Virus record (IMG/VR): IMGVR_UViG_3300037400_004417
Origin: a virus
Taxonomy: Duplodnaviria > Heunggongvirae > Uroviricota > Caudoviricetes
Strand: one strand, 5' to 3'
Length of the DNA: 64,000 nt
In this document: positions 88 to 58,397 of the stretch, one piece after another
How positions within the stretch are numbered: the stretch's first letter is position 1
How the letters are laid out: each line of letters starts with the position of its first letter
The notes under the pieces: model-generated
Told to the model about the DNA's origin: nothing
Database searches by the model: none
What the model saw: only the letters and a program-made list of their open reading frames with translations
Translations under genes and position numbers: made by a program

Positions 88-1758
88 TTAATTTACAGGC
101 TCAACTAAAACCTGTAAACTGGTGTTATTATTAATACTTACAGAAGAAGATTCTAAAGCTTTTACATTATCAGTTAACTTTTTTGAATTACTTACTATAG
201 TATCTATAGTATCAGCAATTTTTTCGAATAGTCTAGATGATTCATTTACGATAACAGAACCAGATTCTACTCTCTTCGTATTCTCTTCCATTATCTTAAC
301 AGCTTTATCTGTATCTATTCTAACACTATTGACGATATCTGATATTTGCCCTGAAGCTTCTCTGCTTTGTTCCGCTAATTTACGAACTTCTTCTGCGACT
401 ACACTAAAGCCTCTGCCATGTTCGCCAGCTCTAGCTGCTTCAATCGCGGCATTTAACGCCAATAAATTAGTTTGTTCTGCAATATTAGAAATAACCTCAG
501 TAATTCCACTAATTTCTACAGATTTATCTTCTAAGACTTTAATTACCTTTGAAGAACTATCAACGGAATCTTTTATAATGTTCATCTGATTCATTGCTTC
601 ATTGGCCTTTTTCTTTCCAGAATTCGCCATTGAATGAGTCGAATTAATACTATCTATAGTAGTATCTAGTATATTATTGCAGTCATTCATTTTTGTCTGC
701 ATTTCGTTTGCACTAGCTGTAGATGATTCTACTGACTCAAATTGCTGTGTGCATGATCCAGCTACATTTACAGCTGAATCTGCTACTGTAGCAGAAACTA
801 TAGCAGATTGTTCTGATGATGCTAACAGTTGTTCAGAAGCAGCCGCAACTTGCTGTGCAGAATCAGCTATACTGGAAATTAACATTGCTACTTCTTCTTG
901 TAAGATTTCTAAAGATTTGTACATTACACCAATTTCACTTTCATTGGCATAATTGCTATATTCTATAGTTTGTTTAAAATCTCCAGAAGACATTGTAGAC
1001 ATTTTATTACAAATATCCAGTATAGGAGAGGCTATTGCCTTACTAATATTTACTGCTACTATATAAGAAATTATAGTAGTAAACATCATTACTACACAAA
1101 TAATTATAATTTCTTTATTGGTTTGAGCATCAGCTATTTCTGTTTGTTCTGCGACTTTTGCTTCTATAAAATCAATATAGATACCGGTGCCAAATACTAT
1201 TTCATATGGATCATAAGAAACACTATAATTCAATTTAGGATAAAATTCTGTGCTGTTATGTTTAGGAAAAGTCATATGAGTATAACCGCCACCTTCTTTG
1301 CGGCCATTGGAAATAACTTCCTTCATAAATTCTTTTCCTTCACTATCTTTAGCGTTAATCCTATTTTTACCTTCGACTTCTTTGTTGCCTAACAGAACTA
1401 AATTAGTACCGTCAAAAGTATCACAGAAATAATATCCATTACCGTTATCATATCTGGCATCTCTTAATAGATTTCTAACTTGCTCGATAGCTTGTTCTCT
1501 CGTAAATTCTCCGGCTAATTCTTTGTCATGGATTTTGTCAATACAACTCCATAACATTTCTGTTTTTTGCTTTAATTCTATCTTTACATCTTCTAATAAT
1601 TGATTCTCATATCTATTTATATATTCATTTTTATTTTGAAGATTATGAAAGATGAATATAGCTCCAATTAATAAAGTGGTTAGAAATGTAGCGACAACTA
1701 TAACTTTTATTAAAGTATTCTGTATCGTATCTTGAGTAGGTTTGAACGTTAATTTCAT
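88..1758 (-). CDS. methyl-accepting chemotaxis protein (TM + periplasmic sensor + HAMP + MCP signalling domain)
   Basis: 575-aa ORF 88..1815; conserved MCP signalling hairpin [34 protein letters not shown]; hydrophobic TM after MKLTF; likely true start at internal MKLTF (1758). Confidence 0.8.
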
Positions 1759-1792
1759 AACAACTCGTAATAAAACGCTCCTTTCTCTTTTT

Positions 1793-2074
1793 CTAAATAT
1801 TGTATGTATAGCCATCTATATTATTATTGATCTTTAAGATAAAATCTTCTAGATCGTCAATATAGATAGCACGATTAACAGGTCTTACTCTTGATTCTGC
1901 TAGAAAATGATCGTAACTCCAAAAATCTTCTTCTGGAATATCGATATCTAAATTTTCTGCGTCAATAAACATTTGTTTAGGATTGCCACAAATAACTATA
2001 CCGTACATAGCCGCAGCAGTCTTTAATAACTTTATTGTCTTTCCAGTACCGTTTGTTCCTACAATTTTAACCAT
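1793..2074 (-). CDS. small P-loop NTPase-like protein
   Basis: 93 aa, Walker A GTNGTGKT near N-terminus; too short for a full ATPase. Confidence 0.3.
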
Positions 2075-2779: not shown

Positions 2780-3230
2780 TTAAGTATCCAAGAAAAATTA
2801 CGAATAATCATAAATCTTCTAAACTTGATTTTGTTCGATCTTTTAACTCTGCACGCTTAGCATTGTTCCAACGATCGACCGTGCCCGTTAAATCCTTATA
2901 TACCCCTACTTTCGTAGTACTTTAACGCTATTAATATAGCGGGAGTAGAGTACACCATCTTCCTATATATTGAAAGGAAGTCTGCATTATACTCGTTGAA
3001 CCTTCTTCTTAATACAATTAAGAAGTTTGGCTGCTGATTGTCCATTCAATTGGGTAGCAACTTTTAGCATCTATATCCTTAGGCAAAAATATAGACTTTT
3101 ATTTCAGCATGAGTCATCTCTCAACTTGTTTCTACTTTCGTTCCGTTATAGGCATGAGAGCTTTAGGAGTTTCCAGCATGTTAGCAGATTATTCGACTCT
3201 ACGTTACCGTAGAGAAGGGCCCAAAAATCA
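2780..3230 (-). ncRNA. group I intron-like element (family A), host gene unidentified
   Basis: contains an R-like element (plus-strand ctcgttgaacc at 2993) and ggctgctgattgtcc (3029), at the same 37-nt spacing as the recA, SNF2 and gyrB family-A introns; no ORF. Confidence 0.4.
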
Positions 3231-3503
3231 TCTTTGAGAGCCTGTGATTCGTCTTATACGATCAAATTTAACTGGATCTGTTTGAACGGCGATATCTAAA
3301 GTCTCAGGATCATCCATATCTGTTACCGTAATAGATACGATATCTTCAATAGAACTATTAGAAACTTTAATAGCCTGTTCAATATAATACTTTTCGTCTT
3401 CAGTACCAGACTCCAATATATTTTCTAATGGTACGCAAATTTTTCTCTGCCAATTAAATAAATGTTCTTCCATTTTTTCCTTTACTCCTTCTCTACTATG
3501 CAA
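3228..3503 (-). CDS. hypothetical protein (possible upstream exon of the gene split by the 2780-3230 intron)
   Basis: 91-aa ORF, no recognisable motif. Confidence 0.35.
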   Translation of the reverse strand: MHSREGVKEKMEEHLFNWQRKICVPLENILESGTEDEKYYIEQAIKVSNSSIEDIVSITVTDMDDPETLDIAVQTDPVKFDRIRRITGSQR

Positions 3504-3787
3504 CCTTCAGTATTGACATAACTAACTGTATATAAAGCATATTCTGAATTAGAATTAAATTCTACATCCAAAACACTTTCATTATGAATAGAGACTAATA
3601 AATCTATTAAAACATGGTTGCTTAATTCTTCATAAATATCAGATATCATATAACCAGACATAGGTAATAGCTCCATGCCTTTGTGTTCTATTAGCTTATT
3701 ATCGGCAGTCTCATATATTATTTCGGGTGCTGAATTTATTGTATTTTTTCTGACGAAAACTCTTTTAATAAATTGATTCTCTACCAT
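3482..3787 (-). CDS. hypothetical protein
   Basis: 101-aa ORF in the minus-strand operon. Confidence 0.4.
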   Translation of the reverse strand: MVENQFIKRVFVRKNTINSAPEIIYETADNKLIEHKGMELLPMSGYMISDIYEELSNHVLIDLLVSIHNESVLDVEFNSNSEYALYTVSYVNTEGCIVEKE

Positions 3788-3839
3788 TTTATCTTTTTCT
3801 CCTCTCTTTTTACAGCAAAAGGATACTCATTATATTACA

Positions 3840-4187
3840 TTACCTCGTATTGAAATAATTAACGATATCTTCTTTGCTTTTATTTTTAACGAAATCTTGC
3901 CAAACTCTATATTTTTCAGACATTTCATCTATATCAGGTATATCTATATGGCCAATTTTAAACCATAAAGCCATAGCTTCAGGAATATGAGTGCCACCAT
4001 AATAAGGCATACCCATATAATCATAAGGTATACCAGCGATATAATGACTATAAGAATCTTTTCCTAGATAACAGCCTAGATCCAAGAAATTTTTAGTCAC
4101 TAAGATATCGCCTGGTTTAAATTCAATAAATGGCGGCTTATAAAAAGTCTTTCTTATCCAATGTTTAATTTTAAACAAACTGATCAT
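3840..4187 (-). CDS. hypothetical protein
   Basis: 115-aa ORF. Confidence 0.4.
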   Translation of the reverse strand: MISLFKIKHWIRKTFYKPPFIEFKPGDILVTKNFLDLGCYLGKDSYSHYIAGIPYDYMGMPYYGGTHIPEAMALWFKIGHIDIPDIDEMSEKYRVWQDFVKNKSKEDIVNYFNTR

Positions 4188-4608
4188 AATGCCTCTTAAT
4201 GTACCAAATAGCCTTGTTACAATCCTCTATAGTTTTAGCAGGATTCTTCTTGCCGGCGCGAGATAAATACTTTATAGCGTTACCTAAATGAAAGCCCAAG
4301 CCATTCTGCTCTATAAAATCAATAACTTCATACTTGCCATCGGTATAATGATTAGGATGATTAACGACATCTTCATTAGATGTTTTCGTAAATTCATTTT
4401 CTTTTTCGCTATCATCATATTCATCTATAAAATGATTAATATTTGCAATCGCGAATTCAAGTAATTTTAATTGACTTCGATGATAATTTTCCTGTTCAAT
4501 AATTCCTTGAAAAGTCACGATATCAATAATGGCTTCACCTAAATACGGATTTATCTTTTTATCTATAATATAATCAATAGGCTTAATACAATCTTTAAAA
4601 TCAACCAT
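4171..4608 (-). CDS. DUF3310-like phage protein
   Basis: NHPNHYTDGKYEVIDFIE...GNAIKYLSRAGKKN resembles the NHPxHY..KYL signature of the DUF3310 family. Confidence 0.45.
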   Translation of the reverse strand: MVDFKDCIKPIDYIIDKKINPYLGEAIIDIVTFQGIIEQENYHRSQLKLLEFAIANINHFIDEYDDSEKENEFTKTSNEDVVNHPNHYTDGKYEVIDFIEQNGLGFHLGNAIKYLSRAGKKNPAKTIEDCNKAIWYIKRHYDQFV

Positions 4609-4617
4609 AAAATAAAA

Positions 4618-5016
4618 TCACTTCTTTCTTCTATCGGCGGCAACAAAAGCCTTCGCTAAAGTGTCGATAGTGCTATGCCATATAGTATATTCTAAAGAGT
4701 TTTCATCAGGAGGTTCTAATTCTGCCATAGTACAATGTAATAGCTCATGAACTAGAGTCTGTTCCATATCTTGAGGAAAATCGCTGTAATCCGGATAATC
4801 AAGTGGATCTAGAAGCATAATCAAAGACTGTTTACTGACTAATGTAATACGATTTTCTCCCTGTGCGTTCTGTAAATTAAAATACGCTGCACGACCGATT
4901 TGAGCTTTGATATCCCATTCCTGTAATCTAAGTATCTTCTTCCACTTCTTTAAAGCTTTGTTTAACTGTTTCTGATTCTTGTATATCATACAATATTCCT
5001 TTTCCTTTTCTAGCAT
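4618..5016 (-). CDS. putative HExxH zinc metallopeptidase-like protein
   Basis: 132 aa with VHELLH motif. Confidence 0.3.
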   Translation of the reverse strand: MLEKEKEYCMIYKNQKQLNKALKKWKKILRLQEWDIKAQIGRAAYFNLQNAQGENRITLVSKQSLIMLLDPLDYPDYSDFPQDMEQTLVHELLHCTMAELEPPDENSLEYTIWHSTIDTLAKAFVAADRRKK

Positions 5017-5288
5017 TCAGGATATATCAGTAGCATATCATTGGCAAAATCATACTTATATAGATGTCGTCTACCCTTTGAAATATAAATAACAGGATGA
5101 TTATTTTTTAGATATGCTTCTTTATCTATGATGTATTCAGGATCATCTATAATCACATCATCGATTTTAATAGCTTTCTTCTGAATTAATCGTCTAGCTT
5201 CACCGCCAGCAGCACATATTTTTGTCTTGCATAAAAATCTTCTTATATTCATATTTTTGTATCCTTTCCTTTCCAAATCATATTCCAC
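5010..5288 (-). CDS. hypothetical protein
   Basis: 92-aa ORF. Confidence 0.3.
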   Translation of the reverse strand: MEYDLERKGYKNMNIRRFLCKTKICAAGGEARRLIQKKAIKIDDVIIDDPEYIIDKEAYLKNNHPVIYISKGRRHLYKYDFANDMLLIYPEC

Positions 5289-5824
5289 GCCTTGTAATCT
5301 GTAGTTCCCATTATAATATTAGCTATACATTGTAAACCAATACAAAGTTCTAAGGGTATATCAATAAAATAAATAGCTAATGCGGCGCCAAAGAATTGCC
5401 CACCTAAATTCCAAGCGGATTCAAACGACTCCCATTTAGTTAGGTTATCCCCTTTTATAATATTGTTAACAGCATTACGCATTAATACATACCAAAGATT
5501 TGTACTGACCGCATTAAGTACAGCTAAACCTAGAAACCTTACAGTAATATACTCCGTAGATAAGAATGAGACAATACAAAAGCATAATAAATCTATAATA
5601 ACTATGCTATAGAAATGTTTTTTGTACCATCTCATAATCCTGTCTACAGCAACTGAGCTATTAACTAAAGCAGCTAATCCCGTAGAAAGCATATTGGCGG
5701 CGGCAAATATTTCAGTAGATACTCTGGACACAAAATATATCTGAATGATAGGACTCGTTAAAGCAAAGATAAATGATACTAAAACAGGACCTGACAATAG
5801 ATAGAACTTTAGTTTATTGCTCAT
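5249..5824 (-). CDS. multi-pass membrane protein
   Basis: 191 aa, several hydrophobic helices. Confidence 0.45.
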   Translation of the reverse strand: MSNKLKFYLLSGPVLVSFIFALTSPIIQIYFVSRVSTEIFAAANMLSTGLAALVNSSVAVDRIMRWYKKHFYSIVIIDLLCFCIVSFLSTEYITVRFLGLAVLNAVSTNLWYVLMRNAVNNIIKGDNLTKWESFESAWNLGGQFFGAALAIYFIDIPLELCIGLQCIANIIMGTTDYKAWNMIWKGKDTKI

Positions 5825-8118
5825 ATAATTTTTTCTGCCGGTAACAATCTATCTTCATAATACATCTTTTCTATATCTTTAATAGTAAGATTACGGAGAT
5901 AATCAGCGCCGAATTTATCCTTCAAGTCCCTTATGATATTATAAACTCTTACATCCTGTTCAGTAGCAAAGTTCTTTCTGACAGTCTTATTCTTAGAAAT
6001 AGATTCTAATAAGCCTCTCTTATATTTCCAGTACTTATAGAAAGGAGTCTTATATTTGAACATAAATCCATTAGAGTCTTCAAAGACATATCCTTCATAA
6101 AAAGGTTCATTGTTGTTTTCATGAAAACTTATAAAAGACTGCAAGTTATCCCAAGAAAAGAAAAGAGCTTTCGGCTTTTTAACTTCTATTTTAAAATCTT
6201 CAGCTATTTTCTTAACTTCTTCATAAGGTTTCTTATTAAACTCAAAGGTATTCTCTATAATATCTAAAAGATATAGATGATCTTTTTCATACCATATAGG
6301 GTGAGAGCTGTCTCTACTATCTACAACTTCAAAGACCATAGTTATGTTATTCTCTTTCAGATAGGTCTCAATTGCTTCTCTTGCATCTGCTGGTAACTTA
6401 CTGAACTGATACTTGAGCATGTCAGAGTATTCACCAGACAACAATGTCTTAGAACAGAACAATAACTTATCTTGTTCTCTGTCATAAGAGATAAGACCTA
6501 AGAAACCGTTCTCTTTCTTGTAGGCTGTCACAGGAAATACTAAAGTATTTTTTAAGGCTTCATCTGTAGTATTCTCTGTTTCAAGCCTGTTAAAAAATTT
6601 AGAATATCCTCTCGCTGCGATATCTCCTGTACTATTATAAACAAATAAGCCTCGAGCAGTACAGGTAAGGTTATTCCATTCTCTGCGCTTAAAAGCGCCC
6701 TTCGTAAAATTGTAAGAAGTTATATGCCCCTGAACAGTCTTTTTAATCAGCTTTGACTTCTCTAGCTGATCAATAATCTCAGTTTTATTATTATCAGAAA
6801 CTGTCACGTTTTCATTAGCAAATACTATAGGAATAATTCTTTCGTTGGGTATAGTATTCTTAATACGATGAACAGTTATCTCAGAAACTTCTAGATTTTC
6901 TTTTTTCTTGATCTGAAGAATTCTTAAATCGCCGCCGGTTTCTACCTTATCACAGAGATTATAAATCTTATTCTTAACTACTTCAGTCTCAACATCATAT
7001 ACATTACGATGAGCATGAATAAAGATACAGTCTGTATCAGACTCTAGAACTTCGTATAGCTTATCAGTATCTTCATACTTACCGACACCGTTAATAAGCT
7101 GATAAGTAGGAGTAAACCAGTCTGGAGGAGTAGGATAGCCACCATGACAGATAAAATAATCTTCTCCGGCAAAATAAAAATAAGCCATCTGAGCGAACTT
7201 GCGGCAGAACTGTCTTAAATCCTTCTTAGAAATATCCTTAATCTGAGGCATTGTATATTCCAAGAACTCCGCAGACCTAATCTTCTGGTGCAGTAAATTC
7301 TTAAGTTCCTTTTTGCTTAAAGTATTTCTCTGTTCATCAGTGACAGGAATTTCGGCGCCGTTGTCATCAGCATACATCCTTAACCATTTTTCATGATTGC
7401 CTTCTAAGAATAATACATTCTTATTCTGAGACAAGTTCATTAAGAATTCCAATGTCTCCTTATTCTGTAAGCCTCTATCTAAATAGTCTCCGGTAAATAC
7501 ATAACCGATCTCATTGTCAAAAGGATGTTCGTCAAACCATTTTTTTAAAGGTTCATAACAACCATGAATATCTCCGAATACCTGTACTTCCTTATAGTTA
7601 GAGTAATCATAGAACGGTTCTTCGTTACAGATAAAATTGCTAGCTTCATCGGGAGTCAAAGTATGAAATCTCTTAGATACTTCTTTATCTGCTTCGAATA
7701 CGGCATACATTTTACGGATAACTGCTTCAGGAACGAATTTGTAAGCATCTCTTTTCTTGTTTCTTTCTAAAGCAGTTTCCAAAGGAACCTGAGTAAAGTC
7801 AACGATAAAGTTTCTGTAGCGGTACTTAGATACTAAGTTTTTGTATCTATTAAGAAGTTCACTCTTATAATGGGTAGCGTCAATGATAATAAGCTCGCCG
7901 CGTTCCATTCTCTGTTCTAGCAGCTCCATTAATAGATCCCATACTTTTCCATCATTATTCTGGGAAATAGTATAATTGCCGTCAATATTCATAATAGGAC
8001 ACTGATACAGCAATCTGATATTGTCAGCAGATAAAGTATATCTTTCTAAATCGTTATCCTTAATCCAAGTAGATTTTCCGGCACCCGGAGCACCTCTTAA
8101 TAAAAATAACATTCGCAT
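5821..8118 (-). CDS. Pnkp-like polynucleotide kinase / metallophosphoesterase / ligase-like end-healing enzyme
   Basis: 765 aa; N-terminal P-loop kinase GAPGAGKST; central calcineurin-type phosphoesterase motifs GDIHG, GDYLDRG, GNHE; roughly 300-aa C-terminal domain in the position of the ligase/adenylyltransferase domain of bacterial Pnkp. Confidence 0.55.
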   Translation of the reverse strand: MRMLFLLRGAPGAGKSTWIKDNDLERYTLSADNIRLLYQCPIMNIDGNYTISQNNDGKVWDLLMELLEQRMERGELIIIDATHYKSELLNRYKNLVSKYRYRNFIVDFTQVPLETALERNKKRDAYKFVPEAVIRKMYAVFEADKEVSKRFHTLTPDEASNFICNEEPFYDYSNYKEVQVFGDIHGCYEPLKKWFDEHPFDNEIGYVFTGDYLDRGLQNKETLEFLMNLSQNKNVLFLEGNHEKWLRMYADDNGAEIPVTDEQRNTLSKKELKNLLHQKIRSAEFLEYTMPQIKDISKKDLRQFCRKFAQMAYFYFAGEDYFICHGGYPTPPDWFTPTYQLINGVGKYEDTDKLYEVLESDTDCIFIHAHRNVYDVETEVVKNKIYNLCDKVETGGDLRILQIKKKENLEVSEITVHRIKNTIPNERIIPIVFANENVTVSDNNKTEIIDQLEKSKLIKKTVQGHITSYNFTKGAFKRREWNNLTCTARGLFVYNSTGDIAARGYSKFFNRLETENTTDEALKNTLVFPVTAYKKENGFLGLISYDREQDKLLFCSKTLLSGEYSDMLKYQFSKLPADAREAIETYLKENNITMVFEVVDSRDSSHPIWYEKDHLYLLDIIENTFEFNKKPYEEVKKIAEDFKIEVKKPKALFFSWDNLQSFISFHENNNEPFYEGYVFEDSNGFMFKYKTPFYKYWKYKRGLLESISKNKTVRKNFATEQDVRVYNIIRDLKDKFGADYLRNLTIKDIEKMYYEDRLLPAEKII

Positions 8119-8133
8119 ATGGTTATCACCTCT

Positions 8134-8457
8134 TTATTTACATTTTTGCTGCAGGCGAAGATTTTCCCGAGCTTGAAAAATTTCTTTCAATTCAGTATCA
8201 AAATCAGCTGAAGGAAAAAGTTGATTCAAGTGGTTTTTTAAACATCTAAAATAATATCTAATTGCATTTATATCTTTTAAATAAGACGATACAGCCATAA
8301 ACATTCCTATTTTATCATGAGTAGCTATATCTTTTTCGTCAAATTCCATTAATTTATTAATCTCGGTTAATTCTATTCTAGCTTTACTTGTTCGTTCGCA
8401 AGATAATTCTTCACTAATTCTATATACATATTTAGCGAAATCAGATATATGTTCCAT
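8134..8457 (-). CDS. hypothetical protein
   Basis: 107-aa ORF. Confidence 0.4.
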   Translation of the reverse strand: MEHISDFAKYVYRISEELSCERTSKARIELTEINKLMEFDEKDIATHDKIGMFMAVSSYLKDINAIRYYFRCLKNHLNQLFPSADFDTELKEIFQARENLRLQQKCK

Positions 8458-8480
8458 GCAATTGACTCCTCTATGTTAAA

Positions 8481-9233
8481 TCACATATCTCCCTTAAGCA
8501 TAGGATCGACTTCTTTACAACTTACTTTCTCGTATGCTTTTAATAGCATATCTAAAGTTGGCGCCGCTCCACAACACTTGCTTCCTTCTGGGCAATATCC
8601 TAAAGATTTACAACTAGCTCCAGCTTTCTTGAATAGTACAGGAGAAATGTTTCTACACAATCTCAACATTTCAAAAGCCACTTCTCTCATTTCATCCATC
8701 GCTCTACGGCAACATCTAAGATTAAAGAAGTGAAGCAAAGTTCTAAGGTTCATTGTAAAAATAATTCTAGTAGCTGTGCCGTTAGGAAGAATATATCTAG
8801 CATCTTCTTTAGATACTCCCTGATCAAGTAACTCATTATATGCAGCTATGGATTCCTTCGCAATATCGTCAAATGTTTTTTTCGCCTTTTCGGTATATCT
8901 AGCTACACGTTTAAATTTATCGGGCTTAATAATCTCACAATTACTTTCGCTACAGTACCTCATCGAGCGTTGTGAATAGGACGCAAGCCGATGCCTTACA
9001 AGTTCATGTGTAAAGTTACGGCTTACTCCTTCTACTGCAAAGGTAAATGACACGTGTTCTAATGGGCTCTCATGGCCCATATCCATCAAGCCTTCGATAA
9101 ACTTTTCAGTATTTTCTGAAGTCAGATCGTCCATAATACTATCAATATCAACTTTATTAGAATAACAGAGCTTAGCCGCCGCCGCGATGATCTTTTTTGG
9201 TTCTGGTGTATGTGTTAATAGCTTTACTTTCAT
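8481..9233 (-). CDS. thyX: flavin-dependent thymidylate synthase ThyX with Cys-rich C-terminal extension
   Basis: HESPLEH and RHRLASYSQRSMRY signature motifs; C-terminal tail CKSLGYCPEGSKCCGAAP. Confidence 0.8.
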   Translation of the reverse strand: MKVKLLTHTPEPKKIIAAAAKLCYSNKVDIDSIMDDLTSENTEKFIEGLMDMGHESPLEHVSFTFAVEGVSRNFTHELVRHRLASYSQRSMRYCSESNCEIIKPDKFKRVARYTEKAKKTFDDIAKESIAAYNELLDQGVSKEDARYILPNGTATRIIFTMNLRTLLHFFNLRCCRRAMDEMREVAFEMLRLCRNISPVLFKKAGASCKSLGYCPEGSKCCGAAPTLDMLLKAYEKVSCKEVDPMLKGDM

Positions 9234-9505
9234 GACATTTGCTCCTTACTAGTTAAAGTTTGTAGTTTATCCTGCAATTCTGTTATAATCTTTAAAGCTG
9301 GAAGAAAATTAACAGCATCTTGAATATTGTAAAAACAATTTCCTAATTTTACAGCTTCAAGCAAAGCTTTCTTGTATTTAGTTTTTACAAGATAGTATCT
9401 TGACTCTCCAGTCTTATAGTTATAATCTTGATTCCAGACATATATAGACTCACCTTCGTCTGGGATTTGAATAGTATATTTAGATGTATCTATTTCTTTT
9501 TCCAT
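9230..9505 (-). CDS. hypothetical protein
   Basis: 91-aa ORF. Confidence 0.4.
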   Translation of the reverse strand: MEKEIDTSKYTIQIPDEGESIYVWNQDYNYKTGESRYYLVKTKYKKALLEAVKLGNCFYNIQDAVNFLPALKIITELQDKLQTLTSKEQMS

Positions 9506-9528
9506 GATATATATCCTTACTGATTTTA

Positions 9529-9777
9529 TTATCCTACAGATTCTTTGTATAATTCTTCGCTGTTTTTCAGCATATATGCTGCTATATTTTTATAAGCTTT
9601 ATCGCTAAGCCCTTCTGTAAAGCCTCTATAATCAGTTCTAGCCGGATACATTTTATTTTCTGTAGGATCGATAACTATACACCAGCCAAAAATATGCAAA
9701 AAAGAATTTACAAAATATAATAATCCAGTATTTCTAAATTCTTCTAATGTTTTTTCTGTTAAATGGTCTTTATTCAT
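9529..9777 (-). CDS. hypothetical protein
   Basis: 82-aa ORF. Confidence 0.4.
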   Translation of the reverse strand: MNKDHLTEKTLEEFRNTGLLYFVNSFLHIFGWCIVIDPTENKMYPARTDYRGFTEGLSDKAYKNIAAYMLKNSEELYKESVG

Positions 9778-10520
9778 TTTTCTCCTTTAATTAATTCTGT
9801 ATACACTTGAACTAGAAAATGATTTACGCCGGCAATATCTTTTTCTTTGATCTTGCTTTTCTTAAAAGACGTATCTAGCATCTCTTTATGAATCTCCTGG
9901 AGATGAAGAAATGCTTCATAAGATATTTTTCCATTACGAATATTTCTTAATATAGCGATATCGTTTTTTCTGTAAGTATTAACCTTACCAGTCATAAGAA
10001 TTTCAGAACCTATTCTCATTAGTCTAATATAATGATACATAGCTTTTCTTCTTTTCTCGTCATCAGTAAGTTTTTTGATTCTTCCTAGTTCAGATTTAGC
10101 AAAGCCGCCAAAAGTATAATAAACTTCTTTTGATACAAATAAGTCTATATTATCTCTTAATTGGCGGCCGATATCATCTATATAGATAATATCTTCTTCT
10201 CTAGTTCCTAGCATTTCTAGTATGTTAGGATTACAGTTAGAACATAATTTGACAAATTTCTTTAGTCCGTAAATAACAGTATCTGTCTCTCTATTCTCTA
10301 TCTGTTCAAAAGAAGATAATCCTAATAGTTCTTCAGGAGCATCTAAACAGATGCCCCTGATATCTAAATCTGAGGTAGGAGTAGCTACACCATATGCATA
10401 AGAGCCGCTAATAGTAAGATAAATAAGCCGGCGTTCTTCCATTAGCTTCTTAATAAAATTATATCTATTATCCTGTAACAATTTTTCTAAAGTCATAAAA
10501 TTTGCGTTATGGAAACTCAC
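9774..10520 (-). CDS. nucleotidyltransferase (minimal pol-beta-like NTase fold)
   Basis: GSYAYGVATPTSDLDIRGI matches the GS..G...SD.D nucleotidyltransferase motif; 248 aa. Confidence 0.5.
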   Translation of the reverse strand: MSFHNANFMTLEKLLQDNRYNFIKKLMEERRLIYLTISGSYAYGVATPTSDLDIRGICLDAPEELLGLSSFEQIENRETDTVIYGLKKFVKLCSNCNPNILEMLGTREEDIIYIDDIGRQLRDNIDLFVSKEVYYTFGGFAKSELGRIKKLTDDEKRRKAMYHYIRLMRIGSEILMTGKVNTYRKNDIAILRNIRNGKISYEAFLHLQEIHKEMLDTSFKKSKIKEKDIAGVNHFLVQVYTELIKGEK

Positions 10521-10648
10521 GGTTTTAATCGTGGGTTACTGAATACATTCTACCTTTGAACCTAAAAATAATCGATCCATCGCGTATCTATCTAATTCCA
10601 GCAAATAATTAAGATAATCAGTTATTTCTTCTTTTGTTATATATTCTT

Positions 10649-11371
10649 TCATGAAATTTCCTTTTCAAAAAAATCTTTCAGAATTAAAGAACAGGCTCTT
10701 AACATACCTATATGCTGATAATTAACGGCTACATTTTCTTTCATTAACGACTCTAATATGTTCTCTAAAGCTTGACTGGAAGTAAAACAATGATTCTGAT
10801 ATCCTTTGTTCTCTTCATAGATATCGAACAATTCAGACGCTAATCTATTAATATCTTTGCTATTTTTAATAGTATCCATATTATAGATATCATCTGTTAC
10901 TGGAATTCGGAAATAATGTTTCTTAGTGCGAGCATTATATTTAGCACGTAATTGTTCGCAAATCATGTCGATATGAATATCAGTTTTAATTTTCTTTAAT
11001 TCTACATTATAAAAGATACTCATAGCATTATCGCCATATTCGTTGACCCTTACGACAATAATGATATTACTTGACTCATTATAATCAAGAACATCTCGTT
11101 CAAACAATGTATAAGTTATATTGAGTGTTCCAGATAAATCAATATTCTTAAAGAGCTGATTAAAATTGCATTTTATCTCGAATATTTCGTCTGCGATATT
11201 TTCATTAATAGCAACTACAACATCGCTGCCAGGAAAACTATGATAAGTTTCAGTATAAGTCTTCCTATCATGAAGTTTTACGATAAAATTCTTATCTGTT
11301 TCTAATGGTGAAGGTGTAGTAGAGAAACTCTGTCCCTTATCTATAATGTATTTCTGTTGTTCTTCTGACAT
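10649..11371 (-). CDS. hypothetical protein
   Basis: 240-aa ORF. Confidence 0.4.
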   Translation of the reverse strand: MSEEQQKYIIDKGQSFSTTPSPLETDKNFIVKLHDRKTYTETYHSFPGSDVVVAINENIADEIFEIKCNFNQLFKNIDLSGTLNITYTLFERDVLDYNESSNIIIVVRVNEYGDNAMSIFYNVELKKIKTDIHIDMICEQLRAKYNARTKKHYFRIPVTDDIYNMDTIKNSKDINRLASELFDIYEENKGYQNHCFTSSQALENILESLMKENVAVNYQHIGMLRACSLILKDFFEKEIS

Positions 11372-11486
11372 TTACTTTCTCCTCTTTTCTATATTTATCT
11401 CACTCTAAAACTATATAAAATATGTTATCCTTTATATAAATCCATATACTTCCAAGTTTTTACGTTACTCATTTTTAAATAGTTTT

Positions 11487-12368
11487 TTATGGCTTAATCA
11501 TCATTGTGCTATCCATACCAGTATACTGTGGCAACTTGCCGTCCCACTTATCAATTTTCTTTAACTCAATAATGTTTCCGTTAAGAGAAGAGTTAATCAT
11601 AGCATTGCTATCAGCTTCTGCTTTAGCCTTGATAAGCATAGAATCAGCAACACCCTTTGCTTCAGCTACTTTCTTCTGAGCTTCTACTTCAGCCTTCTCC
11701 TTTTCTATCTTGGCCTGTTCTAAAGCATTCTGAGCATTAACTACATTCTGAATAGCTTCTTTTGTCTGCTCATCAGGCACAACGTCAGATAAATTAAATG
11801 TTTCAACGACAATACCGAATTCTTCAAGGCTATCTCTGAACTGCTGGAAAATCTTATTATTGATTTCCGGGCGCTTATCTCCTACAAGATCCATAAGAGA
11901 ATACTGAGAAGTTACTTCATTAATTGCCTGATACATTTCATTTTTCATATATCCAGCTTCAATTAAATCAGATTCCTGTCCACGAAATTTTTCAAATACC
12001 TTTGGCAAAGCATCTGCATCCATATGGTAAGCGTATGTTACACTAACATTTACCTGCTTACCGTCCTTGGTATTAACATTAATACTCTGATCTTTCTTCT
12101 TGTCTTTGTCGTTATCTCCATCTTCAGAAGACTTTGTGTAATACACAGTTTCTGTTGATACTGGATACTCTGTTACATGTTTCCATGGTGCAACCATATG
12201 AAAACCTTGGCCGAGAGTAGTATCTTCTATACCGCCATCCATATTGTAAACAACACCGGCGTAACCAGGATTAATCTTATAAGCACACATAGCACCGAGA
12301 ATGATTACAGTCGCACAGGTTACACCGACACCGGCAACACCTAACATTTTTATTATAGAATCTTTCAT
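11487..12368 (-). CDS. SPFH/band-7 (stomatin/prohibitin-like) membrane protein
   Basis: N-terminal TM, SPFH core, C-terminal coiled-coil rich in A/E/K. Confidence 0.7.
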   Translation of the reverse strand: MKDSIIKMLGVAGVGVTCATVIILGAMCAYKINPGYAGVVYNMDGGIEDTTLGQGFHMVAPWKHVTEYPVSTETVYYTKSSEDGDNDKDKKKDQSINVNTKDGKQVNVSVTYAYHMDADALPKVFEKFRGQESDLIEAGYMKNEMYQAINEVTSQYSLMDLVGDKRPEINNKIFQQFRDSLEEFGIVVETFNLSDVVPDEQTKEAIQNVVNAQNALEQAKIEKEKAEVEAQKKVAEAKGVADSMLIKAKAEADSNAMINSSLNGNIIELKKIDKWDGKLPQYTGMDSTMMIKP

Positions 12369-12576
12369 TTTTCTATTCTCTCTCCTCTTTAAATAATTTA
12401 TTCCATATGTCTTTTAAACTTATGCCAACTTCCTTGTTATGAGCAATAGCAAGTTTAACAAAAGCTATTAAACATAAAATACATAGTATAAACAGCATTG
12501 GTTTAACCATTTTCGTTTTCTCCTATTAATATAAGATATCGGCGCCGGCGTTTTACTTCCGACGCCTTTTTCTTAT

Positions 12577-12939
12577 TCATTCATGATAAGGTTCAAAATA
12601 TCTCCAGGCTTTTACATGTTCCATCTTTAGCATGCCGTTATTTCCATCTTTGACAAAGTTAGGATAAAAACAAGATGCTACTCTTTGTCCAATATAATAG
12701 CGACTACTTTTTCCTACATAGAAAACGGCTAATTTATATTCTTCAGGATAATCTTCTACAGACTGTATAGTTATCCAATCATTCATTTTTTTATTCATAT
12801 CCCCTTGCAAAAATTTTCTAAGCATTTGTCTCAACAGATATATTGTTTTTCCACATCGTCTTGGAATAATATACTTATACTTATTCCTTCTTACGCCTAA
12901 CTTCTTTAGAAGAAGAATATCTAACTTAATATCAATCAT
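12577..12939 (-). CDS. hypothetical protein
   Basis: 120-aa ORF. Confidence 0.4.
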   Translation of the reverse strand: MIDIKLDILLLKKLGVRRNKYKYIIPRRCGKTIYLLRQMLRKFLQGDMNKKMNDWITIQSVEDYPEEYKLAVFYVGKSSRYYIGQRVASCFYPNFVKDGNNGMLKMEHVKAWRYFEPYHE

Positions 12940-13858
12940 TGTTCTTGTATCTCTTTACTTTAGCCTTATAATTGCCATCTTCTCTTCTATGACAATGAGG
13001 ACATTCGTTAGCTATTATACCGGTATAACCACAGATAGGATCGTAATCTACAGGATGATTTATACTAATATAACCCATATCTGCTTCTACCATATTTTTA
13101 ATAAGCTTTTCAAACGCTGGTAAATTCTGCAATGGATCTCCAGGGAATTCAATATAAGCTATATTACCGGCATCCGTTTCACGATGATAAGGAGCTTCGA
13201 TTTCTATTTTATGTTTAGCGGAACATTCGTAATATGTTGGCACATGACTTCCATTCGTAAAATAATCTCTATCTGTTACTTTCTTTACGATTCCAAAATC
13301 TTTACGTGCAGCACGTAAGGATACTCCACAGAAATTTTCAGAAGGACTAGCAAAAGTACTCCAGTTCAAATGTGTTTCTTCAGTGAATTTTGTAGTCATA
13401 GCTCTTAAATGTTTTACGATTTTTAATCCTAATTTCTGAGCTTCCTCAGATTCTCCGTGATGTTTGCCTATCAAAGCTACTAAGCACTCTGCTAATCCTA
13501 CGAATCCAATACTTAAACTAGCATTTAGTAAAGCTGGTCTAATTTCATCCGTAAGTTTAAGTTTTTCGGAACCTTCATATAGACCTTGAGCAAATACAAA
13601 AGGATAATTATATACTTTTTTCTTAGCGATGATTTCAAAACGCCATTCTAAATATTTTTTACCCAAGTGAATATATTTGTTAAAAAGTTTAAAGAATTCA
13701 TCAATTAATTCCTTAGATTCAACAGTTTCATCTAAATCAATATTTAAATTTTTCTTAGCTTGTAAGGCTAAATACGGTAAATTAATAGTAGTAAACGCGA
13801 AATTGCCTCTAGATGCGGCATGTTCTGGCCCGTTTACGTTACTCATAACTCTTGTTCT
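12932..13858 (-). CDS. nrdD: anaerobic ribonucleoside-triphosphate reductase NrdD, exon 4 (C-terminal; glycyl-radical and Zn-ribbon)
   Basis: glycyl radical motif ICGYTG, C-terminal CPHCH Zn site; in-frame extension CRTRV upstream of the first Met; intron ends in G at 13859. Confidence 0.8.
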   Translation of the reverse strand, partial: RTRVMSNVNGPEHAASRGNFAFTTINLPYLALQAKKNLNIDLDETVESKELIDEFFKLFNKYIHLGKKYLEWRFEIIAKKKVYNYPFVFAQGLYEGSEKLKLTDEIRPALLNASLSIGFVGLAECLVALIGKHHGESEEAQKLGLKIVKHLRAMTTKFTEETHLNWSTFASPSENFCGVSLRAARKDFGIVKKVTDRDYFTNGSHVPTYYECSAKHKIEIEAPYHRETDAGNIAYIEFPGDPLQNLPAFEKLIKNMVEADMGYISINHPVDYDPICGYTGIIANECPHCHRREDGNYKAKVKRYKNND

Positions 13859-14092
13859 GCACTTTTATTAATAACTTGAATTTCTTCAAGGATCGGACTA
13901 TATCTTTATGCTATTAATAGCATATCTTCCATTTGGATATATAAATCTACGAGCGTAATAGCTCTAGTCTCTGAACCGAGTATTCTTTAAGAATACGATG
14001 GCTGCTGATTGTCGGCGTCGTCAAATTCTTTTATTGACAACACTACGATTTCCAGCAATTAGGAAGATTTTACATGAGCTGTAGAAAAGTTA
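13859..14092 (-). ncRNA. group I intron, nrdD intron 3 (family A, ORF-less)
   Basis: S-like cggactatatcttt (13905) and gctgctgattgtc (13998) on plus strand; exon 3 ends GGT (U), intron ends G; joins ...FAAAMG to CRTRV. Confidence 0.6.
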
Positions 14093-14378
14093 ACCCATGG
14101 CTGCTGCAAAGGTACGATAATCTCCTTCTTTATAGTAAGGAGCATTAAATGATGAAGACGTATTAAGAAAATTAGGGAATAAACGCTTCGCACTTACTTT
14201 GCAAGCATACTGGAATAAATCATAATTAGGATCTCCTTTTTCAAGATTTATTCCTTTATGGATTTGGAATACAGATATTGGGAAAATTGCAGGCTCTCCT
14301 TTTCCCAATCCATTCCATACTGCTTCTAATAAATACTTAGATACTAATCTACCTTCCGGAGAAGTATCCATTCCGAAA
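14093..14378 (-). CDS. nrdD: NrdD exon 3
   Basis: continues the NrdD reading frame; stop at 14090 lies just inside the intron. Confidence 0.6.
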
Positions 14379-46646: not shown

Positions 46647-46902
46647 CATTTATGTTCGATTAAGGTCGCTAATCTTAATCCGTTCTCCTACGAACTGCTT
46701 TATGTTTCCATAAAGATCAGACTATATCTTTTTCGATTTTTCTTGAAAGTTTCTGTTTCCATTCGCTTGAATGTACGGCTTATTGCCTAGTCGTTGAACT
46801 CTATTATATAATATCAGCTGCTGATTGTCCTTATATTATAATATAAGGGGATTCCAGCATTTAAGAAACTTTTACAACGGCATATTTTTTTTATGCGGTT
46901 TT
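46647..46902 (-). ncRNA. group I intron, gyrB intron 1 (family A, ORF-less)
   Basis: exon 1 ends ...SGLNG (GGT, U) at 46903; intron ends G at 46647; exon 2 starts VGISCVNA, restoring GLNGVGISCVNA; S cagactatatcttt (46715), R gcctagtcgttgaac (46790), gctgctgattgtcc (46817). Confidence 0.7.
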
Positions 46903-47238
46903 ACCGTTTAAACCTGAAGTATTTGTTGTGTATCCATCTTGTGATGAAAACTTGCCACCTGCATGTAAAGAGCCTATTGCAAGCTCAATTTGACGTTTAT
47001 CTTCATATCCTGGAGTTTTAGAATATCCAATAGGGATACCGCCGCCATTATCTTCTACGATAACTTCTTTATCTATGATAGCGGTGGTTATGATAGAACA
47101 TCTCCCGGCGCTCGCTTCATCTCTAGAATTATCTAAAGCCTCATTAATACAATGATCAATAGAAGGGAGATACATTCCTCTTCTCATTCTAACATTGTCT
47201 GGAAAATCTAATACGCTTATTTGTGCTTGTTCCGCCAT
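46903..47238 (-). CDS. gyrB: DNA gyrase subunit B, exon 1 (GHKL ATPase N-terminus)
   Basis: VRMRRGMYLPS...EALDNSRDEA...VEDNGGGIP...LHAGGKF. Confidence 0.8.
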
Positions 47239-52953: not shown

Positions 52954-53478
52954 TTAGTCTCTCTCTTCTATCTTTTTAATAACAGGTTCTAAATACTTTT
53001 GTATAGTTTCTTTATCGATAAGTCTCTGATTGGAACTTCCTCTAAAGTTTAAACTTAAATCTCTTTGTTCTAAGATAAAAGGACCGTCTACTAGCATATC
53101 TATATTTTCTAGAATGTTAAGAATATCCCAGTCATGATACTTTTCTATCTCTTCTATCATTTGTTCAATAGTATATCCAGTGTATAACCATATAGTCATA
53201 TCTGGATATCTTTCTTTGAACGCTAGAATAAAACATGCTGTATCATAAGGCTGATAAAGAGGATCGCCGCCGGATAAAGTTATTCCGTCTAATAAATCCT
53301 TATTCTTTTCAAAGTCTTTTAAGAATTCGTCAATAGAAATTTCTTTGCCGCCATTAAAATCCCAAGTCTGTGGATTATGACAGCCTTTACAATGATGAGT
53401 ACAGCCTTGAGTAAATATTACGTATCTAATGCCTTCGCCGTCTACGAAGCTTTCTCGTTCTATTCCTGCAATACGCAT
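52954..53478 (-). CDS. nrdG: anaerobic ribonucleotide reductase activating protein NrdG (radical SAM)
   Basis: GCTHHCKGCHNP (CxxxCxxC) and TLSGGDPL. Confidence 0.8.
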   Translation of the reverse strand: MRIAGIERESFVDGEGIRYVIFTQGCTHHCKGCHNPQTWDFNGGKEISIDEFLKDFEKNKDLLDGITLSGGDPLYQPYDTACFILAFKERYPDMTIWLYTGYTIEQMIEEIEKYHDWDILNILENIDMLVDGPFILEQRDLSLNFRGSSNQRLIDKETIQKYLEPVIKKIEERD

Positions 53479-53762
53479 TATAAATTCGCCGCCTTAGCCT
53501 TACGTTCTGCTTCCTTCTTAGCCTTGATAGCAGTCTTGTGTTCTGCACGTTCCTTTAATTTTCTTGGTCGTGCAGAATTCTTTTCAATATCTCTTAAATA
53601 CTTAGCTAACTTAATTACGGCATTACGATTATCATGAACCATATTATAAAAATCTTCAGCTGTCTTAGCATTCTTAGCACTTACACTTAACGCAGCTACA
53701 GCATCAATGTTATCTCTAATATACTGGCTTAAAGAATTATCCGGCATCATAAATAAAATCAA
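53478..53762 (-). CDS. hypothetical basic protein
   Basis: 94-aa ORF. Confidence 0.4.
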   Translation of the reverse strand: MILFMMPDNSLSQYIRDNIDAVAALSVSAKNAKTAEDFYNMVHDNRNAVIKLAKYLRDIEKNSARPRKLKERAEHKTAIKAKKEAERKAKAANL

Positions 53763-53789
53763 TCCTCTCTTTTATTATTTATGTAAAAT

Positions 53790-53927
53790 TTATTTATTGC
53801 ATCCACATGGACACATATTAGTAGTACAAGAAGGTCCTCCACAATTTGTGCAAGAACCAGTATTAAATGTCATATATGCTCCGGTAATAGCTGCTAAAAT
53901 TAAAAATGTAGAAATAATCTTTTTCAT
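53790..53927 (-). CDS. 45-aa secreted/hydrophobic-leader peptide with six Cys in the C-terminal 22 residues
   Basis: MKKIISTFLILAAITGAYMTFNTGSCTNCGGPSCTTNMCPCGCNK; RBS aaagg upstream; below the ORF-track size cutoff. Confidence 0.4.
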   Translation of the reverse strand: MKKIISTFLILAAITGAYMTFNTGSCTNCGGPSCTTNMCPCGCNK

Positions 53928-54181
53928 ATAATTCTATTTTCCTTTCTTTATTCCCTATTTATATTTTTATGTCATTAGGTGGTCCACCTGGCTCTGCTGG
54001 TTGAAGCCCTGCATCCAATGGTTCGTCAGCTAAGATAAGTTTATCTATAAACACTCCTAAATCTGTATCGATATAATCATCTGTATCTATCCACAAATCT
54101 CCAACTTCGGCGGCTTAGCGTACCTATTCCTTGAAAATAATAGGCACGCTAAATATTAACCACTAAAAATTAAATAATATA

Positions 54182-54661: not shown

Positions 54662-54766
54662 AAATACATCTCTTCTTTCTTAATCTAATTAAATTAACAT
54701 TTTCTTATTAACTTTCTTTGCCAAATTAATATGATTATTAGGCATTAATATATATCTTCATTCCTT

Positions 54767-58391: not shown

Positions 58392-58397
58392 ATTATA

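Follow-up and report, generated by a model that had tools for sequence, protein, structure and literature searches.

A large low-GC phage, of which a stretch of 64,000 nucleotides (the window) was analysed, encodes a 765-aa protein that we suggest, with a probability of roughly 0.7, to be an autonomous heal-and-seal RNA repair enzyme, accompanied by a nucleotidyltransferase of the RlaP family that could supply nucleotides lost at the break. The kinase-phosphoesterase-ligase protein (KPL) is encoded at 5821..8118 on the minus strand, from an ATG start preceded by AAAGAGGTG, and the nucleotidyltransferase ORF is present on the same strand at 9774..10520. KPL is predicted from its sequence to carry all three activities for mending cut RNA, namely a 5' kinase, a 3' phosphoesterase and a ligase. 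RNA end healing and sealing analogous to that of T4 Pnk/Rnl1 had been proposed in the first-pass annotation and is also the best reading here.

In the proposed repair, the central binuclear metallophosphoesterase would open and remove the 3'-terminal phosphate, the P-loop kinase would phosphorylate the 5'-OH, and the ligase, adenylylated on Lys535, would transfer AMP to the 5'-phosphate and join the ends. If the nuclease had removed a nucleotide (RloC-type damage), RlaP would extend the healed 3'-OH by one or two nucleotides, and sealing after this addition would give at least some functional RNA. Observation covers the identities of the domains, the intactness of their catalytic residues, the related folds, the gene order and the distribution of the family; which substrates are used, in what order the steps run, whether KPL and RlaP cooperate and whether they counter host defences is inferred.

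The healing domains of KPL

KPL combines a P-loop kinase, a binuclear metallophosphoesterase and an ATP-dependent RNA ligase in this order in one polypeptide, and over its full length it matches PHROG 8238 ("RNA ligase", E 2e-193). The Pfam families AAA_33, Metallophos and RNA_lig_T4_1 are each matched far over the gathering score, and the catalytic residues throughout the protein are constant, or almost so, in an alignment of 189 homologues. These domains and intact active sites bear out the fusion of a kinase, a calcineurin-type phosphoesterase and a ligase that had been claimed earlier. The domain order is shared with Pnkp of Clostridium thermocellum (CthPnkp), which works with Hen1. In T4, by comparison, different proteins carry the Pnkp and Rnl1 activities, with a HAD (DxDxT) enzyme as the 3'-phosphatase.

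The kinase domain (residues 1-150; 7669..8118, minus strand) matches AAA_33 at residues 4-142 (E 1e-18). Its P-loop, GAPGAGKS, lies at residues 9-16 and includes K15 and S16; D32 is predicted to be the general base, R35 to form the acceptor site, and R119 and R123 to belong to the lid. The best matches in the PDB were PSTK (3e-6), the CthPnkp kinase (4gp7, E 4e-6) and T4 Pnk (7e-4), so that the CthPnkp kinase is a close solved match and PSTK a marginally better one. K15, D32 and R35 align with K21, D38 and R41 of CthPnkp, whose residue roles (PMC3902929) were used for the mapping. These three residues are kept in 187/189 homologues, the remaining two being gapped, and R123 is kept in all 189.

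The phosphoesterase domain (residues 175-400; 6919..7596, minus strand) is of the binuclear lambda-phosphatase/PPP/CthPnkp type and matches Metallophos at residues 180-374 (E 6e-16). The motifs quoted in the first-pass annotation were located at residues 182-186 (GDIHG), 210-216 (GDYLDRG) and 240-243 (GNHE), and were joined by HGG (325-327) and HAHRN (368-372). The metal ligands, on which that annotation depended, are present: the predicted metal and phosphate ligands D183, H185, D211, D214, R215, N241, H242, H325 and H370 pair by motif with D187, H189, D233, D236, R237, N263, H264, H323 and H376 of CthPnkp. E393 might tentatively be the counterpart of D392 of CthPnkp, a pairing that is not backed by any alignment. 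The ligands, including E393, are invariant in 188-189 of the 189 homologues.

The PDB matches of this domain include PP1 and lambda phosphatase (1g5b), with PP1/PP2A the best by sequence. Alternatively, KPL might act on DNA ends (3'-phosphate/5'-OH breaks) instead of RNA while the phage replicates or recombines, or its phosphoesterase might mainly degrade cyclic-nucleotide signals or dephosphorylate proteins. For these alternatives stand the PP1/PP2A matches, the annotation of some phage homologues as "serine/threonine protein phosphatase" or "polynucleotide kinase", and the gene context of KPL, which is one of DNA replication, recombination and dNTP synthesis. We nevertheless regard these alternatives as very improbable.

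The sealing domain and its resemblance to fungal Trl1

The C-terminal domain (residues 455-765; 5824..6756, minus strand) is an ATP-dependent RNA ligase of the Trl1/Rnl1 type, with an adenylyltransferase core and a C-terminal helical module. It belongs to the Rnl1/Trl1 superfamily through its match to RNA_lig_T4_1 (PF09511; residues 488-694, E 1e-37, 131 bits against a cut-off of 28.3). Ligase motifs I, IV and V, which had been named earlier as the ones to look for, were all found (K535-E-N-G538, E675-G-Y-V-F and K688-Y-K690), as was motif III (E597). The key residues are R489, K507/F508, K535 (the predicted AMP acceptor), N537, E597, H606, E675, K688/K690, K698 and R701; of these, K535ENG, E597, E675G, K688xK690, R489 and K507F508 occur in 188-189/189 homologues. 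The suggestion of a C-terminal ligase domain held, in that the last ~310 aa have a covalent nucleotidyltransferase fold; the domain resembles that of fungal Trl1, not that of bacterial Pnkp.

The kinase and the binuclear phosphoesterase of KPL are as expected for a bacterial Pnkp (TIGR04075). KPL does not, however, combine an Rnl4-type ligase with a whole-protein score above the TIGR04075 equivalog cut-off, and no adjacent Hen1 appeared among the families listed in the Pfam scans of the locus. The classification is thereby corrected to a Pnkp-like healing half and a Trl1/Rnl1-like sealing half, and with a sealing half of this kind Hen1 is not needed. Its absence, noted in the first-pass annotation, was confirmed in the Pfam scans of the neighbouring genes and among the families listed for the window; RtcB, Rnl2, 2H and Tpt1/KptA were likewise absent from the families listed for the other window ORFs.

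The closest solved structure of the ligase domain is Trl1-LIG. The match covers 311 of 326 residues and hence includes the C-terminal helical module, whereas only 245 residues align with T4 Rnl1, whose C-domain is unmatched in KPL. The KPL family profile also aligns through the Trl1 C-domain, and KPL has the Rnl6 feature of an all-helical domain appended C-terminally to the adenylyltransferase domain. Motif I (KENG) is identical to that of fungal Trl1 LIG (Rnl6 clade), with an identity of 22-25% between the domains. The trifunctional fungal and plant Trl1 differs in its order, LIG-KIN-CPD, and in using a 2H cyclic phosphodiesterase; KPL has the order KIN-phosphoesterase-LIG with a calcineurin-type enzyme, and Pfam found no 2H domain in it. 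His606, Lys698 and Arg701, present in 189/189 homologues, are the probable counterparts, as judged from the alignment, of His227, Arg334 and Arg337 of CthTrl1, so that the first Arg of the Trl1 triad is replaced by Lys698; the motif IIIa His of Trl1 is replaced by Leu618.

According to published work, the His-Arg-Arg triad of Trl1 enforces 2'-phosphate dependence and other ligase families lack it (PMC6379707, PMC11404444, PMC12440814). KPL might accordingly follow Trl1-like chemistry, with a true Rnl6-clade ligase for which a 3'-OH,2'-phosphate end is preferred or obligatory. Its phosphoesterase would then be only a cyclic phosphodiesterase that leaves the 2'-phosphate, and a host KptA/Tpt1 would have to clear the junction. 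The structural match including the helical module and the invariance of the aligned triad speak for this chemistry, yet we consider it quite unlikely. His185 of the phosphoesterase is kept in 189/189 homologues, and wild-type CthPnkp, with His189, yields a 2'-OH product that is sealed by T4 Rnl1; only CthPnkp H189D leaves a 2'-phosphate suited to the yeast ligase. Arg215 and His242 are invariant as well, and their CthPnkp counterparts are required for the Mn-dependent monoesterase activity. Furthermore, phmmer with E. coli KptA as the query detected no KptA/Tpt1 homologue in the window or linked to KPL in the 166 related loci, and in KPL a Lys replaces the leading Arg of the triad. Plant Trl1, which lacks these arginines, still needs the 2'-phosphate, and CtTrl1 has a preference only (PMC12440814), which makes the triad an unreliable predictor of 2'-phosphate dependence.

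It would surprise us if the KPL family of phages and bacteria represented, in prokaryotes, the Rnl6 (Trl1-LIG) clade, so far described as fungal, with an invariant His-Lys-Arg pocket by which it could seal or even prefer 2'-phosphate ends. If it were, phage RNA repair would create 2'-phosphate junctions in bacteria, the widespread and substrate-less bacterial KptA/Tpt1 would gain a natural substrate, and a phage-like ancestor would be indicated for the eukaryal tRNA ligase domain. A functional Trl1-like pocket would matter for two questions, namely how eukaryal tRNA ligase arose and what role bacterial Tpt1/KptA has.

RlaP and its linkage to KPL

The first-pass annotation had also noted a Pol-beta-type nucleotidyltransferase near KPL, and we can specify it as RlaP (PF10127), a family associated with RNA repair. 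The gene (9774..10520, minus strand) encodes a short form of 240-248 aa that matches PF10127 (E 9e-24; 85 bits against a cut-off of 23), NTP_transf_2 and PHROG 388 (E 6e-52). Translation may in fact begin at the ATG at 10496 and yield 240 aa, which agrees with the 97%-identical protein P0121 and with the gene call of the related locus L084. The catalytic residues G39-S40, D51-x-D53 and D80 are invariant in an alignment with 37 homologues (38 sequences), as is the pattern GS...DxD...TDT. The AF2 model (pLDDT 94) shows a beta-sheet nucleotidyltransferase core followed by long helices, that is, the N-terminal nucleotidyltransferase and C-terminal helical domains of an RlaP, an architecture also described for PfRlaP. 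The nearest solved folds are kanamycin nucleotidyltransferase and HalB, and two-domain Pol-beta nucleotidyltransferases fit the model. A solved RlaP structure was sought, and none of the chains in the PDB could be matched to the window protein by sequence.

RlaP of Pseudomonas fluorescens and P. aeruginosa, encoded in rtcB-rlaP-rtcA operons, shares PF10127, the catalytic Asp triad and the nucleotidyltransferase-helical build with the window protein. The latter is a short form in which ~95 residues of the helical region are missing, also relative to the 336-aa Clostridium forms in the alignment, and, in place of RtcB, a 5'-phosphate ligase is paired with it. RlaP adds one or two NMP to RNA 3'-OH ends, which is known for the two Pseudomonas enzymes only (2025 preprint, PMC12776372). 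By analogy, the window RlaP can presumably add back a lost nucleotide to RNA.

The RlaP gene lies 1.7 kb upstream of KPL in tightly packed genes, separated from it by ThyX and three small ORFs, and an RNA ligase gene is thus found in its neighbourhood, as is characteristic of the family. The gene order is kept in L084. RlaP occurs within 10 kb of a KPL homologue in 10/165 other loci by blastp (~6%), and the two genes hence do not form a fixed operon. Tblastn gave 8/83 loci, and no RlaP stands beside the KPL homologue in phiKSUM, SPbetaL8 or the 50%-identical L085/L086; together, these results rule out a conserved KPL-RlaP operon. Of the repair module suggested earlier, what stands is an RlaP near the ligase gene on the same strand; the linkage is loose, with four genes in between.

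The two proteins might instead be functionally unrelated neighbours, placed together by a clustering of early and nucleotide-metabolism genes, with RlaP acting on other RNA 3' ends (e.g., those of tRNA or of phage transcripts) or within a different conflict system. Some 94% of the related loci lack RlaP, the pair is interrupted by four unrelated genes, ThyX among them, and the nearest folds include HalB, an oligonucleotide synthase of a defence system, and aminoglycoside nucleotidyltransferases. In T4, the nrdC.11 gene lies, we presume, in the nrdC region and not beside rnlA or pseT. Its product, NrdC.11, is also an RlaP homologue (PMC12776372). Against this, all-versus-all clustering of 8003 ORFs from 166 loci placed RlaP among the commoner genuine neighbour families of KPL (13/166 loci, always on the same strand), several-fold above the rate in whole phage genomes (844 RlaP-positive records of 50,697). 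Moreover, the family owes its name to an association with RNA ligases, and what its enzymes do biochemically is in keeping with repair. Unrelatedness therefore seems possible but on the whole unlikely, and we prefer a joint role in RNA repair.

The same clustering revealed no universal partner gene of KPL; among the real neighbours, those met most often were a DNA methylase, an ABC ATPase, a MazF-like toxin, a small metallophosphoesterase, an AraC regulator and integrases. In the window, the genes around KPL and RlaP serve DNA and nucleotide metabolism (ThyX, NrdD/G, gyrase and RecA). Neither tRNA genes nor an identifiable nuclease target turned up in the window, and no RNA-repair-related ncRNAs near the two genes. 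The weak RlaP linkage (10/165 loci), the apparent lack of RlaP in most isolated phages with KPL, the lack of tRNA genes and of a nuclease target, and the DNA/nucleotide-metabolism context weigh against the proposed repair. A promoter and terminator scan of positions 3000-13000 yielded the same counts as expected after shuffling and was uninformative.

The KPL family in phages and bacteria

The KPL and RlaP genes both belong to families that are already catalogued. RlaP was reportedly named by Burroughs and Aravind in 2016, and the KPL architecture is said to have probably been described there. The literature searched contained no biochemical or genetic study of any KPL family member.

The KPL family (PHROG 8238) is large, with members in Twort-like and SPbeta-like phages, in phages of Fusobacterium and in 357 bacterial genomes. 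A scan of viral contigs with the single protein found one locus only, and an alignment-based scan was needed to find KPL loci. The nearest relatives, at 92% and then about 50% identity, come from metagenomes only. The PHROG 8238 proteins of Staphylococcus Twort/K-like, Brochothrix A9, Lactobacillus, SPbeta-like Bacillus and Fusobacterium phages are full-length homologues with the same domain order (27-41% identity over 92-100% of the query), the nearest from isolated phages being merely 35-41% identical. Staphylococcus is absent from the ten commonest organisms among the RlaP matches; hence most isolated KPL phages (Staphylococcus Twort/K-like) apparently have no detectable RlaP.

Bacteria widely use the cleavage of RNA, for instance by anticodon nucleases, to stop phages, and single-polypeptide repair enzymes like KPL are a likely counter-measure of phages of Firmicutes, Fusobacterium and gut Clostridia. 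A residue-level map of KPL is now available for mutagenesis. The annotations within PHROG 8238 are inconsistent, ranging over RNA ligase, polynucleotide kinase, Ser/Thr phosphatase and hypothetical protein.

Domain composition and ligase type of KPL

The 765-aa kinase-phosphoesterase-ligase protein (KPL; ORF 5821-8118, minus strand) and the 248-aa protein encoded upstream of it (ORF 9774-10520, minus strand) were both confirmed. The motifs quoted in the first-pass annotation are present in KPL (GAPGAGKS at residues 9-16, GDIHG at 182-186, GDYLDRG at 210-216, and GNHE at 240-243), as is the nucleotidyltransferase signature G39-S40...D51-x-D53 in the smaller protein, and the RNA-repair gene pair recognized there is real. 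Pfam assigned AAA_33, Metallophos, and RNA_lig_T4_1 (E 1e-37) domains to KPL and identified the 248-aa protein as RlaP (PF10127, E 9e-24). In PHROGs, KPL matched phrog_8238 "RNA ligase" over its full length (E 2e-193), and RlaP matched phrog_388 "nucleotidyltransferase." By family, KPL belongs to PHROG 8238 and PF09511 and the nucleotidyltransferase to PF10127. Judged by sequence, each appears to be an ordinary member of a known family, and the one detail of note in the pair is the Trl1-like ligase module.

The C-terminal domain of KPL had been likened, from its placement, to the ligase of bacterial Pnkp. When all PDB sequences were searched with phmmer, the sole matches to this domain were fungal Trl1 ligase-domain chains (E 5e-12 to 2e-10), and the CthPnkp ligase was not among the matches even at E<=10. 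A profile of 38 KPL-family members matched the Candida glabrata Trl1-LIG at E 5e-28, with an alignment that starts N-terminal to the RGLF element and stops no more than about 30 residues short of the C-terminus. Residues 440-765 were modeled by AlphaFold2 with 37 homologs (mean pLDDT 93, pTM 0.89), and the model scored highest against Trl1-LIG 6n0t_A (27.9; 311 of 326 residues aligned, 24% identity), Trl1-LIG 9qw7_B (26.1; 302 residues), and Trl1 LIG-KIN 9r3w_A (24.2; 312 residues), followed by T4 Rnl1 (24.1; 245 residues). The scores were 16-17 with Rnl3-type ligases, 12-13 with Rnl5 and Rnl2, 8.3 with Pnkp-C/Hen1-N 4drf_A (rank 21), and 6.2 with the Rnl of Pnkp1-Rnl-Hen1. The structure comparison thus recovered a nucleotidyltransferase ligase fold, as the first-pass reading requires, but the clade of the KPL ligase is Trl1/Rnl1, not Pnkp/Rnl4. 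About 65 more residues aligned with Trl1 than with T4 Rnl1, which indicates that the C-terminal helical module is the counterpart of the Trl1 C-domain, the defining feature of the "Rnl6" clade (PMC6379707).

Ligase motifs I, IV, and V were all located. Motif I (K535-E-N-G) is identical to K148-E-N-G of CthTrl1, and E597, E675, and K688/K690 correspond to Trl1 E218 (motif III), E300 (motif IV), and K323/K325 (motif V), respectively. His606 aligns with Trl1 His227, and the Lys and Arg of W-K698-x-x-R701 fall on R334 and R337. These three Trl1 residues, a His-Arg-Arg triad, bind sulfate, taken as a mimic of the terminal 2'-phosphate (PMC6379707, PMC11404444, PMC12440814), and their mutation slows RNA adenylylation 60- to 580-fold (PMC11404444). 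Motif IIIa differs, with Leu618 in KPL in place of Trl1 His241. The Rnl6 clade has been described as fungal, and phage homologs are not mentioned in the papers searched (PMC6379707, PMC11404444, PMC12440814); therefore, both the structural resemblance to the Trl1 C-domain and the triad alignment may be unreported so far, although the 2016 survey by Burroughs and Aravind might cover them.

The N-terminal 170 residues matched PSTK (3e-6) and the CthPnkp kinase 4gp7 (E 4e-6) in the PDB and, more weakly, T4 Pnk (7e-4) and Pnkp1 (0.03). K15/S16, D32, and R35 align with K21/S22, D38, and R41 of CthPnk, in which D38 is the general base and R41 the acceptor-site arginine (PMC3902929). The phosphoesterase sits in the PPP/lambda-phosphatase branch, and by motif correspondence its residues D183, H185, D211, D214, and R215 are equivalent to D187, H189, D233, D236, and R237 of CthPnkp, and N241, H242, H325, and H368/H370 to N263, H264, H323, and H376.

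KPL is predicted to work like CthPnkp, T4 Pnk plus Rnl1, and Trl1, yet it belongs to none of these families. It fails the bacterial Pnkp equivalog, as TIGR04075 covers only residues 4-267 and reaches 70 of the 750 bits required; Trl1 differs in domain order and phosphoesterase type; and the T4 system consists of separate proteins rather than a single fusion. As the first-pass annotation had noted, Hen1 is absent from the Pfam families listed for the window.

Conservation and distribution of the KPL family

Conservation was assessed in 189 distinct family members (35-92% identity to the query) collected among the protein-search hits and at viral and genomic loci. Kinase residues K15, D32, and R35 are kept in 187 members, the other two being gapped there, and R123 is kept in all. 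Phosphoesterase residues D183, H185, D214, R215, N241, H242, H325, and E393 are invariant, and D211 and H370 are present in 188 of 189. The ligase residues R489, K507, K535, N537, G538, E597, H606, E675, K688, K690, K698, and R701 occur in every member. This conservation of catalytic residues suggests that all three activities are under selection.

The family is large and already catalogued. Among the scored candidates of the protein search, 988 clusters reached E<=1e-10, and all 120 best listed matches carry the three Pfam domains; among the matches listed, identity drops from 92% for the closest relative to about 50% for the next. By tblastn, the gene was found in 133 phage records (27-41% identity), including 95 Staphylococcus Twort/K-like, 18 Lactobacillus, 5 SPbeta-like Bacillus, 5 Fusobacterium, and 4 Brochothrix phages, where it is inconsistently annotated. 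Relatives confirmed by pattern scans number 341 in IMG/VR contigs and 357 in species-representative genomes; the best 80 of these 357 genome loci are mostly from Lachnospiraceae/Acetatifactor, with others from Bacilli, Neisseriaceae, and Cardiobacteriaceae MAGs. Three homologs of about 1080 aa (P0056, P0064, and P0093) are some 320 residues longer, one with LAGLIDADG_3 (PF14528), which suggests an intein or homing-endonuclease insertion in the repair enzyme.

RlaP and the predicted repair pathway

The G-S, D-x-D, T-D-T, and N-P-N motifs are invariant in an alignment of RlaP with 37 homologs. The window protein and a few others represent a short form, with about 95 fewer helical-region residues than the 336-aa Clostridium proteins. 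In Bacillus phages Thurquoise and Deep Blue, which gave the best phage matches, 88-89% of RlaP is covered in one piece; we read this as a short form existing in other phages as well. No obvious ribosome-binding site precedes the annotated GTG start, and a start at the ATG at 10496 gives 240 aa and agrees with the homologs. The AF2 model (pLDDT 94) comprises a nucleotidyltransferase core followed by long helices; RlaP had no sequence match among solved chains, and Foldseek returned only distant two-domain Pol-beta nucleotidyltransferases (kanamycin nucleotidyltransferase, Hailong HalB, and ANT enzymes; TM about 0.4).

According to a December 2025 preprint (PMC12776372), two Mn2+-using Pseudomonas RlaPs add one or two NMPs to an RNA 3'-OH, with a preference for the 5' half of a mimic of broken tRNA, and are inactive on 3'-phosphate ends and on DNA. 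RlaP followed by T4 Rnl1 partly restored aminoacylation of a tRNA without one anticodon-loop nucleotide, and the authors consider the products suited to 5'-phosphate ligases (PMC12776372), the ligase type encoded in the window. Cooperation of RlaP with an ATP-dependent ligase had already been predicted (PMC7824862, citing Burroughs and Aravind 2016).

The best-supported reading of KPL is a one-protein heal-and-seal pathway, in which the phosphoesterase would act first, then the kinase, and the ligase would seal last via Lys535-AMP; RlaP would provide optional gap-filling for nucleotide-excising nucleases. Wild-type CthPnkp, with His189, yields a 2'-OH product, and only H189D leaves a 2'-phosphate suited to the yeast ligase. 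The healing domain of KPL resembles wild-type CthPnkp, and no KptA/Tpt1 is linked to the KPL gene in the window or 166 related loci; both points favor a diol end, in which case a 2'-OH rather than a 2'-phosphate would be offered to the ligase. The His-Lys-Arg set that occupies the Trl1 triad positions in all 189 members favors at least some phosphate-binding role for these residues.

Gene neighborhood and window setting

From RlaP (10520) down to a membrane-protein ORF ending at 5249, the intergenic spacing is -4 to 23 nt, and the gap upstream of RlaP is 128 nt. Cotranscription is plausible; promoter and terminator scans around the two genes were uninformative. Between them lie an 82-aa ORF (phrog_16397, unknown function), ORFs of 91 and 107 aa, and ThyX (E 4e-69). 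The repair module proposed in the first-pass annotation holds as a close same-strand pair whose gene order is the same in L084, the locus with the 92% identical KPL, but not as a fixed association. Loci L085/L086 (50% identical) have ThyX nearby but not RlaP, no RlaP adjoins the KPL gene in phages phiKSUM and SPbetaL8, and within flanks of up to 10 kb a homolog occurs in only 10 of the 165 other loci, always on the same strand and 0.8 to 7.4 kb away. When all 8003 ORFs were clustered, no neighbor family extended beyond 23 loci, with RlaP, at 13, among the commoner real neighbors. Compared with its occurrence in 844 of 50,697 phage records, RlaP is enriched near the KPL gene, as raw counts that ignore relatedness. 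The association is facultative.

The putative membrane protein (5249-5824, minus strand; 191 aa, strongly hydrophobic-looking), whose start overlaps the KPL stop by 4 nt, matches nothing in Pfam or PHROGs and is kept in L084 only. Two genes downstream of KPL, 5010-5288 (minus strand) encodes a stand-alone 92-aa S4/TyrRS-C-terminal-like RNA-binding protein (PF22421, E 4e-7), with a homolog in L084 and in none of the 164 remaining loci; that it takes part in tRNA handling is no more than a guess. In 21 of the 166 loci, the KPL gene is preceded on the same strand, at about 1 kb, by a gene for a PemK/MazF-like endoribonuclease toxin (e.g., L064:8525-8944, plus strand), and these loci may be confined to one clade. 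A second, 185-aa calcineurin-like phosphoesterase is encoded directly downstream of KPL in 19 loci (e.g., L144:12226-12783, plus strand).

The window has a G+C content of 31% and carries nearly all long ORFs on the minus strand. According to the Pfam families listed for the remaining ORFs, it is a phage replication and nucleotide-metabolism region, with NrdD in pieces (three ORFs) with several LAGLIDADG ORFs, NrdG, gyrase A/B, RecA split over two ORFs, SSB, UvrD- and SNF2-type helicases, ClpP with an AAA+ ATPase, a T4 gp30.3-like protein, and TnpB; no tRNA genes were found in it. Rfam identified two group I introns (RF00028; 85 and 62 bits) at 13874-14148 and 46698-46920, both on the minus strand, and the first is taken to interrupt nrdD because the C-terminal piece of NrdD (12932-13846) follows just downstream. 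A RAGATH-18 RNA (55226-55287, minus strand; 66 bits) adjoins a 405-aa ORF (55347-56564, minus strand), which we presume to be TnpB with this RNA as its omega/guide RNA. ORFs in 52954-63883 match TnpB/IS605 OrfB-type families (Cas12f1-like_TNB, OrfB_IS605) and a resolvase domain, and the RNA together with the TnpB-type families suggests an IS element within the phage genome. At the other end, the product of 88-1815 (minus strand; 575 aa) is a methyl-accepting chemotaxis protein (MCPsignal, E 1e-40) whose sensor domain is of the Cache type (dCache_2, E 5e-34); it may be unusual phage cargo or the edge of host DNA.
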